A DNA stretch of 42,653 nt. Source: Candidatus Micrarchaeota archaeon (lineage in GTDB: Archaea; B1Sed10-29). The stretch is from contig CAYLXZ010000002.1 in NCBI GenBank assembly GCA_964388265.1, forward strand, positions 1 through 42,653, read 5' to 3'. Of this stretch, positions 9,001 through 12,000 are shown in pieces; the stretch's first letter is position 1; every line of letters begins with the position of its first letter. Made by a program: the position numbers.

Positions 9001-12000
9001 CTTCAGATTCTGGTAGGAAGACAGGTGTCTGAATAAATTGGCTCTAGCGAATATAGCGTTTACATCTGACCTGATTTCCTTGGACTCAGTGGACATATCG
9101 TGGCCTAGGACCTCTACCAACCCTTCATCCGGATCCATCAAACCCGTGCAGGCTTTCATCATCGTAGTTTTTCCTGCTCCGTTCGGTCCGAGTAATCCGA
9201 GTATCTCTCCTCTGTGCAGGGAGAATGAAACATCATCGAGAACCTTTAGCTTCTTCTTGCTCAAAATCTCCTTGAAGTACCTGAATAGGAAGTTCCTGTT
9301 CCTGTACTTTTCCCTGATCTTACTTCTATTCTTAAAGCTCTTCGAAACGCTTGATACTTCTACGATCGGAGAAGATTGAGAAGAATCGGAAAGGCCTGGA
9401 GGCATCGGTGGGAACACCGGTTAATTTACCTCGAAGGATATTTAAAAGACTTTTGCAAAAAGAGTTTAAAGGAGGAGGCAATTGAATTATATAGAAGAGA
9501 GAGAAGTCTAACTTTCGAGGCAAAGAAAGATTCTAAGGCTCACTAATTATTCCAAGATAAACCTCGTTCAACAAGAGTTAAGTTCAGTCAATCCTTTTAA
9601 CTAAACATGGATGAAGATAGGAAGATAGAGTCAGGTGTATTCGACGAGTACACCAAGAAAACGATCTACAAGCTGCAGAACAAAGGATACTTCGAGACAC
9701 TGGACTTCCCAATATCCACCGGGAAAGAAGCAGACGTATACAGAGGAACCACGAAAAACGAAGAACACATCGCAGTAAAAATATACAGAATCGAAACATC
9801 TAAATTCAGAGAAATGCGAGGATACCTGGCCTACGACCCTCGATTCGAAGAAATAAAACCAACGAAAAGAGGATTAGTCGAAGAATGGTGTAAAAAAGAA
9901 TACAAAAACCTTCGAGACGCTCGAGAAGCAGGAGTAAGATGCCCGAAGCCAATTAAAACAATGAAAAACGTTCTCCTAATGGAATACATCGGCCTGAAAG
10001 ACGGTTCACCGGCACCAATGCTCAAAAACGCGGACCCGGAAAACCCAGAAAAAACCATGGAAACCATCGAGAGATACATAGACCTCATGTACGAAGAAGC
10101 AGGCATAGTCCACAGCGATTTAAGCGAATTCAACGTATTAATACAAGATCAAGAACCAGTTATAATCGACATGGGGCAAGCCGTGAGCGTGAAACACCCA
10201 CGAGCCCAAGACTTCCTTGAAAGAGACAGAGAGAACATAAAGAAATTTACAAGGAAGATTAAATAACACTTAGGAGAGTTAATCATCGTCCTTTCCAAAG
10301 GATCTGTCTATTCCTCCTACATTTCCCTTCTTAAGGTCATCTTCCATCTTCTTAGCTATATTCCCGAGTGTTGTCATCTGCGCACCTCCTTTTTCAGTTT
10401 ATACTGAGACAGTGGAATTAATACCCGGAGAAATATTTATAGCTTCGGGAAAATTGATTACATAAGGCTTTTTACCCACGGACCCTTTAATCATCTACAG
10501 AGGATTGGAAATGAACAGATACACAGCCGTTTTATTCGACATCGATGGAACGCTCATAGACCTCGACGCGGTTATAAAAGGCATAAACAAAGCCCTCAAA
10601 GAAAACGGGCTGGAAGAAATGCCCGAAGAAAAAATAGTAGACGATATAATCGGATACAGATTAGCCGAAAGACTGCCAGATCTCCTGAACATAGACAAGG
10701 AGAAAGCGAAAGAAGTGAGCAAAGACTACACCGATTACTACCTCGACCACCACAAAGAAAGCGATCCCTACCCAGGAGTCAAAGAAACGCTGGCAGAACT
10801 CCGGGAAAAAGGATTCAAAATCGGTTTAGTCACAACGAAGAAAAGAGCAGAAGCACTATCATCCATCGAAACATACCCCGAGATAATCTACGACGTCCTA
10901 ATAGGTGGAGACGACGTTGAAAACGTTAAACCCGATCCAGAGCCCCTGGAAAAAGCATGTGAAAAACTCGGATTGAACCCGAAAGAAACCCTATACGTCG
11001 GAGACCACGTGGTAGACGTTGAAACAGCGAAAAACGCAGGATGCGACTGCGTAGCCATTACCACAGGCGTACACGGCAGAGAAAAACTTGAAGAAGCAGG
11101 AGCAGAGAACATAGTGGACAGCGTGAAAGAAGTCCTACCCATCGCAATGTCCGATGCTGAAGAGATAGAAAAAACCGTTAAAGTACCGAAGGACAGATTA
11201 GGAGCCGTCATAGGTAAAAAAGGAAGGACAAAAAAAGAGATAGAGGAAAAAACAAGCGTTAACTTAGACATAGATTCAGAGACCGGTGAAATAACCATCA
11301 CTCGCTATCTCGGAAGAGCTCCAGAGAAGTCCATAAAAGCAACCGACGTCGTGCGAGCCATAGCAAGCGGGTTTTCACCCCAAAAAGCTTTTAAACTACT
11401 AGAACCAAAAGTATACATAGAAACACTTGATCTAAAAGACTACGTAGGACATTCAAACAAGAGAATAACGAGAGTAAAATCACGGATAATAGGGAAAAAG
11501 GGCAAAGCAAGAAGAAACATCGAGAACCTCACCGAGACACACATATCAATAAAAGGAAAGAGGGTCTCCATAATAGGTGAGATCCACAAGGTAAAACTCG
11601 CTAAAAGAGGAATAGAAAAACTGATAGAAGGATCCCCACATAGTGGAGTCTACAAACTCCTGGAAAAAGAAAGGAAAAAGATAATAAGCTAAACCCATTT
11701 AACAAACCAAAGGAAAGTTAAATCACAGGTGACGCATGTGCCAGAACCCGAACAGTTCAAAGAATTCCAAGAACACTCAGTAGCCGAGTTCTTCAAGAAA
11801 AACAGGCAAATGCTCGGTTACTCAGGTAAAATAAAAAGCCTGACAACCGTAATACACGAATACGTAACCAACGCCGTAGACGCATGTGAAGAAGAAGGAA
11901 CACTCCCCGAGATATTCCTCAAGATAGAGGAAATGGGTCCAGAACACTACAAAGTAATCATAGAAGACAACGGGCCCGGCATACCCGAGAACTACGTGGG

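Follow-up and report, generated by a model that had tools for sequence, protein, structure and literature searches.

A HAD-type phosphatase domain fused to the Dim2/Pno1-type KH protein in one order of Micrarchaeota

The fused gene and its neighbours

The window, a stretch of 42,653 nucleotides from a Candidatus Micrarchaeota archaeon, comprises positions 1-42653 of contig C2 of the genome (G000), and its numbering is identical with that of the contig. An open frame on the plus strand (10505-11692) contains an ATG at 10511, preceded by GAGGA at a distance of 6-7 nt, from which a protein of 393 aa can be translated (Table 1). Pfam recognized in this protein HAD_2 (residues 7-183, 3.7e-42), Hydrolase_like (140-207), KH_1 (222-268, 1.4e-14) and KH_PNO1_2nd (302-384, 9.7e-11), and its AF2 model has a pLDDT of 96.2 and a pTM of 0.83. 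Judged by sequence and model, the product is a catalytically intact HAD-IA phosphatase (residues 1-211) joined to a complete archaeal Dim2/Pno1-type two-KH protein (residues 222-393). The earlier note on this DNA had described the gene as a genuine fusion with both halves intact, and the single frame, the Pfam and NCBIfam domains and the invariant motifs bear this out.

Table 1. Positions of the fused gene, its parts and the flanking genes in the window
Feature	Position	Strand	Basis or remark
Rio1 atypical kinase/ATPase, 219 aa	9607..10266	+	PF01163 9.2e-58; ancestral upstream neighbour of the KH gene
Small 32-aa ORF between Rio1 and the fusion	10279..10377	-	GGAGGTG at 10383-10389, five nt before ATG
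Two T/A-rich boxes (CTTTTTACC and CCCTTTAAT), candidate promoter	10468..10491	+	20-45 nt upstream of the start; family-conserved, six intergenic regions aligned
Fused HAD-Dim2 gene	10511..11692	+	One frame, 393 aa plus stop; Pfam and NCBIfam domains; AF2 model
HAD-IA phosphatase domain, residues 1-211, four-helix C1 cap ~19-83	10511..11143	+	HAD_2 3.7e-42; AF2 helices; Foldseek
HAD motif I, D10-I-D12 (nucleophile Asp, acid/base Asp)	10538..10546	+	Invariant in 9/9 fused sequences and 30/30 rows of alignment A3
Short junction, residues 212-221	11144..11173	+	Met214 is the start position of the separate KH gene in split relatives (alignment)
Dim2/Pno1-type module (arCOG04150), residues 222-393; KH1 ~222-298, KH2 ~299-393	11174..11689	+	TIGR03665, PH1566, Foldseek
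GXXG loops	11213-11224 and 11492-11503	+	G235..G238, G328..G331
Topoisomerase VI subunit B	11729..13279	+	Topo-VIb_trans 7.5e-54; conserved downstream neighbour
Topoisomerase VI subunit A	13373..14464	+	TOP6A-Spo11_Toprim 1.8e-53

As stated previously, Rio1 neighbours the fusion, with one small minus-strand ORF between them. In the sequence of Rio1 the lysine, catalytic-loop and metal-loop Asp motifs are preserved, and Rio1 was found upstream of KH or HAD-KH in 20 of the 25 KH loci examined. The 32-aa ORF is probably the intervening gene counted in the earlier note; it has no Pfam match, and a peptide block akin to it (KM.KDLKKGK) occurs in four of the six family loci. The T/A-rich boxes CTTTTTACC and CCCTTTAAT are candidates for the fusion gene's own promoter. 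The gap between Rio1 and the fusion contains, in the family to which the window belongs, a hairpin with a run of T, the small ORF of the minus strand and a separate box resembling a promoter, and by these sequence features the two genes appear to be separate transcription units. On the other side, Top6B follows the KH gene in 23 of the 25 KH loci, including those of other orders and of another phylum. TopoVI-B is even more widely conserved beside the KH gene, yet this adjacency is not read as shared function.

An internal start at Met214, which would yield free Dim2, was considered and rejected. The codon at this position is CTT, CTC, CTG, CTA or TTA in the five other fused family loci examined, none of them a start codon, so that no internal start is conserved, and no conserved ribosome-binding site precedes Met214 in the fused loci of the family. 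The junction differs in length and sequence between the two fused clades, and the residues flanking it are conserved on both sides in the alignment of fused sequences. The ten-residue block spanning the junction has a mean pLDDT of 90 in the AF2 model. Short ordered junctions and fairly high pTM values (0.83 and 0.77) in AF2 hint at a fixed arrangement of the HAD and KH parts.

The two halves of the protein

All four HAD motifs are present in the N-terminal half. Motif I reads F9-D10-I-D12-G13-T14, in agreement with DxDx(T/V), and is followed by motifs II (T108/T109), III (K140) and IV (G164-D165-H166-x-x-D169); D10-x-D12-G-T, T108/T109-K110, K140-P141 and G164-D165-H-x-x-D169 are invariant in 9/9 aligned fused sequences. 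FCP/SCP- and PNK-type families are defined by a capless core, with the active site open to macromolecules, whereas C1-capped HAD-IA enzymes normally take small substrates. The AF2 model places four cap helices (19-31, 39-45, 51-59 and 63-83) between motifs I and II, as in a C1 cap, and thus lacks the capless (C0) core expected of FCP/SCP protein phosphatases or of a PNK-type RNA 3'-phosphatase.

By sequence and by Foldseek, the nearest solved HAD chains are phosphoglycolate phosphatases, AlnB, sugar-phosphate phosphatases, a pyrophosphatase and CbbY, and the ESM Atlas returned generic HAD-IA clusters only, at 0.87. With the HAD-IA C1-cap phosphatases (2NYV, 2HSZ, PpaX, AlnB 4EX6/7, BT2127 pyrophosphatase 3QU2, CbbY 4UAR and TM1254) the domain has the four catalytic motifs and the four-helix cap in common, with sequence matches of E 1e-24 to 1e-10 and TMt values of 0.79-0.89, those for 2hsz, 4ex7 and 3d6j being 0.86-0.89. 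Unlike these named enzymes it is joined to an RNA-binding assembly factor and stays under every equivalog cut-off of NCBIfam, scoring 145.8 bits for PpaX (PRK13288, cut-off 218) and 133.5 for phosphoglycolate phosphatase (TIGR01449, cut-off 180). A search for group-specific cap residues distinguishing operon from non-operon HADs gave no clear signal. No soluble HAD other than that of the fusion was found in G000; any housekeeping HAD role therefore falls to the fusion.

The C-terminal half belongs to the arCOG04150 family over its full length: residues 223-391 match positions 2-168 of the 173 of TIGR03665 with 195.4 bits (NCBIfam cut-off 114.2). It consists of two tandem type-I KH domains with the aDim2p fold, and both GXXG loops are invariant in 9/9 aligned fused sequences. 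By sequence it matches Pyrococcus horikoshii PH1566 aDim2p in the PDB (3.5e-43), and Foldseek gave TMt values of 0.94 for 2e3u, 0.87 for 1tua and 0.85 for Pno1 in the pre-40S particle (6fai_h). The C-terminal 172 residues thus match archaeal Dim2 (PH1566, 2E3U/3AEV; APE0754, 1TUA) over its full length, with an rmsd of 1.5 A to 2e3u, and resemble it also in the GXXG loops of both KH domains and in having Rio1 upstream and Top6B downstream. The difference lies in the N-terminal 211-residue enzyme and in the lack of a free-standing form in the genome. The two-KH fold is shared with eukaryotic Pno1/Dim2 (and Krr1) of 90S/pre-40S particles (E 1e-12 for the match), but eukaryotic Pno1 carries a disordered N-terminal extension, not an enzyme, where the window protein has the HAD domain. 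A solved relative of the KH module binds the 16S rRNA 3' end, according to the title of PDB entry 3aev. Pno1 is described as a partner of Nob1 that is released by Rio1 (PMC6934326, PMC4231747, PMC8112863).

The two fused genes described here (one on C2, the other on C22) are the only arCOG04150 matches in G000, and neither fused clade has a Dim2 other than the fusion. The HAD domain consequently travels with the KH half and must be tolerated on the pre-30S particle. A Nob1-like PIN_6 gene is encoded in the same genome (C1:64674-64931).

Distribution and history of the fusion

The window's order is a small order of Micrarchaeota (NCBI phylum Microcaldota), represented by 18 species-level genomes in eight families. 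HAD and KH are fused in seven of these genomes and abut in eight; in two the HAD gene is loosened or rearranged, lying beside or near a gene of the cluster, and one genome (G008) is without it. The previous account of separate adjoining genes in sister families agrees with the eight abutting cases, and in seven ORF-checked split genomes the HAD-KH distance ranges from -16 to +21 nt. The account of the window's own family was equally accurate: the gene is fused in all five other genomes (in one it runs off its contig at residue 319 and continues on another), and one further genome of the order (G015) has a fusion that is 45% identical and free of stops.

In the window's order the genes are arranged as Rio1-HAD-KH-Top6B, and in other orders and in another phylum (loci L014, L019, L020 and L021) as Rio1-KH-Top6B. 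The latter arrangement is also found in G008, which has no close HAD elsewhere in its genome. HAD lies beside Rio1 and/or KH in 17 of the 18 genomes and in seven of the eight families; where the cluster is broken, it is found with Rio1 in G011, from where KH has moved away, and G017 and contig C22 of G000 have it together with KH. Outside the order HAD was next to KH in none of 133 genomes (0/13 from other orders of the phylum, 0/120 from other phyla), a sample in one part of which 58 of the 61 genomes come from one family. Among the best 150 of 1.84 billion (1.84e9) protein representatives there were two whole-length fused proteins, and 11 fused clusters from several public sources were found in a set of 5.8e9 proteins. 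A contig search for related loci yielded one fused locus among the 80 kept (L022, which is the G015 locus); the others were almost all bacterial HAD genes.

The Top6B tree and the KH tree each call for two changes in fusion state, and a single clade of all fused rows was rejected (p-AU 0.024 and 0.026). By these trees the HAD-KH fusion arose twice, independently. The HAD-KH linkage as such traces to a single gene insertion in one order. The existence of two fusion origins goes beyond what had been claimed before.

G000 comprises 45 contigs and is 82% complete, and it has duplicated, diverged contigs (C2/C22 and C7/C12). These features could point to a chimeric contig, or to a stop lost or a frame shifted through faulty sequencing or assembly, but the same unbroken architecture recurs in the 11 protein clusters and in seven genomes, and residues are conserved on both sides of the junction; an artefact is close to refuted. 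The second copy of the fusion reported earlier does exist, uninterrupted, on C22 (3567-4745, minus strand) and is 70% identical to that of the window. It does not look like a separate paralogue, however: the 12.3-kb contig parallels C2:4134-15350 in gene order throughout, with protein identities of 49-86% and with Rio1 alone missing, and the pair C7/C12 is duplicated likewise. The C22 copy probably stems from a second related population in the bin, a large duplication being the alternative.

Possible roles of the HAD domain

The reading that we regard as somewhat the more probable is a lineage-specific operon insertion followed by compaction fusion, which produced a two-function protein found only in one Micrarchaeota order. 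A HAD-IA gene from the Micrarchaeota's own HAD clade would have entered the conserved Rio1-KH-TopoVI-B/A cluster between Rio1 and the gene for the Dim2-type KH protein; in compact genomes the HAD and KH genes would have come to abut or overlap, and the HAD stop codon would have been lost twice independently. The C-terminal half, by homology, would do the universal Dim2/Pno1 job of binding the 16S rRNA 3' end on the nascent small-subunit platform, in the step that Nob1 and Rio1 control. The N-terminal half is a predicted active Asp-nucleophile phosphomonoesterase, and it would most likely still hydrolyse some phosphorylated small molecule of metabolism, for example a nucleotide, a sugar phosphate or a compound resembling phosphoglycolate or pyrophosphate. 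Co-expression and compaction of the genome would then account for the fusion, and rRNA maturation would not have gained a step. Several points speak against this reading. The HAD gene was inserted precisely between the genes of two proteins that act in the same maturation step, and it was kept beside Rio1 and/or KH in 17 of 18 genomes, also where the cluster broke. Fusion took place twice, independently and in one orientation, which is more than one chance event would give. The position of the fusion as the sole Dim2, the ordered AF2 junctions and the scores below all equivalog cut-offs count against the reading as well.

The site of the insertion with its retention and the two fusions also favour functional coupling within this order, in which the HAD would act in the Rio1-Dim2 small-subunit step and Dim2 would carry it to the pre-30S platform. 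Its target could be the phospho-aspartate or an autophospho-serine of Rio1, which would be reset in this way, or phosphorylated Dim2 or a ribosomal protein. Such coupling is consistent with the Rio1-HAD adjacency that survives in G011 after the departure of KH, with the fusion being the genome's sole Dim2 and with the intact motifs of Rio1. Rio1 is presented in PMC6934326 as an aspartate kinase that cycles between autophosphorylation and dephosphorylation and that binds Nob1-Pno1 and releases both, and the authors suggest that phospho-aspartate hydrolysis may limit Rio1 turnover. P0144 (449 aa; RIO1 65-247, KH 272-435), a Rio1-KH protein with one representative among the best 150, shows that genuine partners can become fused in this cluster; like the window fusion it joins a neighbour of the KH gene to the KH N-terminus within the same conserved cluster, but the two proteins joined were already known to act together. 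Against coupling stand the C1 cap, seen in the AF2 model and the Foldseek matches, in an enzyme class that normally takes small substrates, the confinement of the linkage to one order, the lack of HAD in G008 and the apparently separate transcription of Rio1 and the fusion in the window's family. The relatives of the HAD, moreover, have metabolic partners: its clade (SH-aLRT 93) includes a paralogue in G015 (P0202) fused to PGM/PMM and a non-operon gene from another order (G027), and in G018 a HAD of the same clade or near it overlaps a PfkB kinase gene. Further fusion partners of HAD_2 relatives are ADP-ribosylglycohydrolase, SET, Peptidase_C39_2 and a second HAD. HAD and KH occur, as in a Rosetta-stone pair, both split (eight genomes) and fused (seven genomes, two events), but the pair does not recur in unrelated lineages (0/133 outside the order) and the HAD_2 partner is promiscuous. 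We consider coupling possible but doubtful. A third conceivable role is that of an RNA-end phosphatase: with the KH domains anchoring it at the 16S 3' end, the HAD would strip a terminal phosphate from pre-rRNA in the manner of the HAD of polynucleotide kinase-phosphatase. Tethering to a module whose solved relative binds this very end (title of 3aev) and the two intact GXXG loops would suit it. The C1 cap and the best matches, which are HAD-IA small-molecule enzymes, do not, and the word phosphatase is absent from the review PMC8339473; this role is very improbable. PNK-type phosphatases are capless HAD-IIIA enzymes. To our knowledge, no archaeal 16S 3'-end step needs a phosphatase.

The earlier proposal that late 30S maturation in archaea at large includes a phosphatase step is not supported: the linkage was seen in one order and in none of the 133 genomes from outside it, one genome of the order does without the HAD, and the domain is a C1-capped HAD-IA enzyme with small-molecule solved relatives and with metabolic partners (PGM/PMM, PfkB) in its clade or near it. 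In the current view, archaeal Dim2, Rio1 and Nob1 operate a simplified version of the eukaryotic 40S end-maturation checkpoint, and we know of no phosphatase in the eukaryotic Pno1 step. In this order the HAD might be a working part of late small-subunit maturation, as a Dim2-delivered phosphatase that resets Rio1 or dephosphorylates another platform component; we think this unlikely. If true, this would place a phosphatase in the Rio1-Nob1-Dim2 checkpoint for the first time, and archaeal ribosome assembly would gain its first protein phosphatase of the HAD type. A comparable situation is that of Bacillus subtilis YqeG, a HAD phosphatase of the yqeG-yqeH ribosome-assembly operon: there too a HAD-family gene shares an operon with a small-subunit assembly factor, but YqeG is bacterial, unfused and of another HAD subfamily. 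Among the papers listed by a literature search, none addressed a link of the YqeG type between HAD proteins and ribosome assembly in its title or the beginning of its abstract. No published HAD-Dim2/Pno1 link was found in the literature searches, and the term haloacid dehalogenase was absent from all the papers that one of them listed. Neither Rio, Dim2 nor KH domain occurs in PMC2643942, on genomic context in Archaea, and phosphatase does not occur in PMC6934326. PMC8339473 describes the interplay of Dim2, Rio1 and Nob1 in archaea as still to be explored, and a phosphatase tied to Dim2 and encoded beside Rio1 is a concrete candidate for acting against phospho-Rio1. The practical reach is small, since one uncultured order and 11 protein clusters are concerned. 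If there is no link to Rio1, the locus is a case of operon insertion and genome compaction in DPANN leading to recurrent pseudo-Rosetta-stone fusions without shared function.

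A HAD phosphatase and a Dim2-type protein in one frame

The window belongs to a genome (G000) of 725,682 bases in 45 contigs (completeness 82%). Because the window is contig C2, window and contig coordinates coincide. The fusion of a HAD phosphatase with the two-KH protein arCOG04150 (archaeal Dim2, here KH) reported in the earlier note was confirmed by the open frame, by Pfam and NCBIfam domains, by AlphaFold2 and by Foldseek. Pfam placed HAD_2 at residues 7-183 (3.7e-42), KH_1 at 222-268 and KH_PNO1_2nd at 302-384, and the arCOG04150 model of NCBIfam (TIGR03665) matched residues 223-391 with 195.4 bits (cut-off 114.2). 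The best named NCBIfam models for HAD, PpaX and phosphoglycolate phosphatase, were both under their own cut-offs. In an alignment of nine fused proteins all four HAD motifs (D10-x-D12, T108/T109, K140 and G164-D165-x-x-x-D169) and both KH GXXG loops were invariant.

Features of the window around the fusion gene, and a distant giant ORF
Feature	Position	Strand	Remarks
ABC transporter pair	upstream of Rio1	-	
Rio1	9607-10266		PF01163, 9.2e-58
32-aa ORF between Rio1 and fusion gene	10279-10377	-	strong RBS GGAGGTG, five nt 5' of ATG
Open frame with fusion gene	10505-11692	+	ATG 10511, GAGGA before ATG, 393 aa
Topoisomerase VI B, then A	downstream of fusion gene		
Giant 3,789-aa ORF	26024-37393	-	GLUG motifs, Ig-like domains; HerA/DUF87-like ATPase in C-terminal part (residues ~3450-3670)

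The AlphaFold2 model (67-row alignment, pLDDT 96.2, pTM 0.83) has a four-helix cap inserted between HAD motifs I and II; the last helix of HAD is separated from the first strand of KH by just a few residues. By Foldseek, the C-terminal half resembled aDim2p (2e3u, TMt 0.94), APE0754 (0.87) and Pno1 in pre-40S particles (0.85), the N-terminal half phosphoglycolate-phosphatase-like enzymes, AlnB and 3d6j (TMt 0.86-0.89). No solved chain covering both halves was found by Foldseek or sequence search. HAD-KH is a real domain architecture, undescribed as far as the literature was searched.

In the six loci of the window's family (G000-G005) the spacer between Rio1 and the fusion gene measures 247-535 nt. 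It contains a hairpin with a T run after Rio1, then a block with the small ORF and, 20-45 nt 5' of the fusion start, T/A-rich boxes; Rio1 and the fusion gene therefore look like separate transcription units. The 32-aa ORF had no Pfam match. A basic peptide block (KM.KDLKKGK) similar to that of this ORF was seen in four of the six loci.

arCOG04150 matched only the fused genes in G000, and in the other fused genomes the KH match was likewise the fused gene only. The second copy in G000 (C22:3567-4745) is 70% identical to the first. The whole contig C22 (12,330 bases) is collinear gene by gene with C2:4134-15350; the one gene absent from it is Rio1, which in C2 separates the ABC ATPase from the fusion gene. 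Another collinear pair, contigs C7 and C12, has 8.9 kb of similarly diverged sequence in common. Both pairs (~9 kb each) have DNA identities of ~66-79% and protein identities of 49-86%. The likeliest source of C22 and similar contigs is a second, related population that probably contributed a few contigs to the bin; a large duplication is the less likely alternative.

Gene order and origin of the fusion

Window proteins were used as tblastn probes on 25 loci holding a KH gene. The order Rio1-KH-Top6B (Top6B, topoisomerase VI subunit B) was found in other orders of the class (loci L014, L019 and L020), in another phylum (L021) and in one genome of the window's order (G008); Rio1-HAD-KH-Top6B was found in the window's order. 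Top6B was directly 3' of KH in 23 of the 25 loci, including those of other orders and another phylum. No functional reason for so widespread an adjacency (L014-L021, L102, L103, L105) is obvious.

Arrangement of HAD and KH in the 18 species-level genomes of the window's order in the collection
Arrangement	Genomes	Number
Fused (G005: contig end at residue 319, rest of gene on another contig)	G000-G005, G015	7
Abutting on one strand (-16 to +21 nt by ORF; G014 by HSPs)	G006, G009, G010, G012, G013, G016, G017, G014	8
Separated by 423 nt	G007	1
Rio1-HAD still paired; KH 2.8 kb off, opposite strand	G011	1
HAD absent from cluster; no HAD match at E<=1e-12 genome-wide	G008	1

In one abutting genome (G017:C88, positions 55-809, locus L016) a nucleotidyltransferase-HEPN pair lies upstream of HAD-KH, where related genomes have Rio1.

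The phylogenies indicate that the fusion arose twice, independently. In the Top6B tree the window's family was a single fused clade (SH-aLRT 100), and fused G015 and split G016 were sisters (SH-aLRT 95) nested among split genomes. The KH tree had two fused clades (SH-aLRT 99 and 100). Two changes were needed in each tree, and a single clade of all fused rows was rejected (p-AU 0.024 and 0.026, from quick trees and for a grouping chosen once the tree was known). The two junctions are also unlike, a short loop in the window's family and a longer helix (H200-219; AlphaFold2, pTM 0.77) in the second clade. In the alignment, the separate KH genes begin at the position of Met214 in the window protein. 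Since the other five fused family loci examined have no start codon at this position, the fusion is obligatory.

Relatives of the HAD domain

The HAD of the fusion belongs to the capped HAD-IA enzymes. Judging by their entry titles, the nearest solved relatives have phosphoglycolate, sugar phosphates, pyrophosphate or a ribose-phosphate intermediate as substrates. A tree of 47 rows grouped the operon HADs in a clade (SH-aLRT 93) with a non-operon HAD of G027, adjoining a methyltransferase-NUDIX-amino-acid-kinase protein, and with a paralogue in G015 that is 38% identical to the operon HAD. This paralogue is part of P0202 (659 aa, locus L108, G015:C1:45000-50000), where it is fused with an entire phosphoglucomutase/phosphomannomutase; G015 thus carries this fusion as well as HAD-KH. 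The gene of a more distant HAD (G018) overlaps that of a PfkB sugar or nucleoside kinase. Among long forms of close HADs the partners were ADP-ribosylglycohydrolase, SET, Peptidase_C39_2 or a second HAD, and none was Rio1. In the 82% complete G000 the fused HAD was the only soluble HAD found; PF00702 matched the two fused genes and one 887-aa frame, PF08282 nothing. Taken together, these observations favour a metabolic phosphatase that moved into the Rio1-KH-Top6B cluster.

Probable operon insertion or a possible step in ribosome maturation

The earlier note had read the fusion as a Rosetta-stone link to a phosphatase step in late 30S maturation of archaea in general. This was not borne out: in a sample of 133 different genomes outside the window's order no HAD match adjoined a KH match (0 of 13 genomes from other orders of the phylum; 0 of 10 from other phyla; 0 of 61 from the phylum of G036, 58 of them one family, among the matches listed; 0 of 51 from 15 families of a small-genome phylum, including one unpublished, G128). 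An exhaustive HMMER search of 1.84 billion representatives gave two whole-length fused proteins (P0005 and P0121) in the best 150, where four other two-stretch matches were HAD-HAD tandems. Word-indexed searches brought the total of fused clusters to 11 (P0001-P0008, P0121, P0269, P0270); one fused protein is named in its source merely 'HAD-IA family hydrolase, partial'.

The best explanation, which we hold with moderate confidence, is that the HAD gene was inserted into the operon in this lineage only and that genome compaction then fused it to KH, twice. That HAD works in the Rio1-Dim2 step within the window's order is a less likely possibility. Such a role is suggested by its position directly between Rio1 and KH, which act in the same step, by its having stayed with Rio1 or with KH whenever the cluster broke, and by two fusions to the cell's only Dim2. 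Rio1 is described as an aspartate kinase whose cycle requires dephosphorylation and which binds Nob1-Pno1 and releases them (excerpt of PMC6934326). In archaea generally, the genes that cluster with RIO include those for KH-domain proteins and aIF-1A (excerpt of PMC5007285), and a fusion of the ancestral cluster neighbours Rio1 and KH exists (P0144, 449 aa, RIO1 at 65-247, KH at 272-435). HAD is absent from the RIO-cluster genes listed in that review, and the characterized archaeal protein phosphatases it covers all belong to the PPP, PPM and PTP families (PMC5007285). Top6B, which adjoins KH across phyla, served as an internal control: conserved adjacency in the cluster is by itself insufficient for inferring shared function.

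In a different phylum, the open frame around a KH match (G136:C7:784-1317) spans 448 aa and is interrupted by a single TAG; it may represent a further case of Rio1 and KH sharing a frame.
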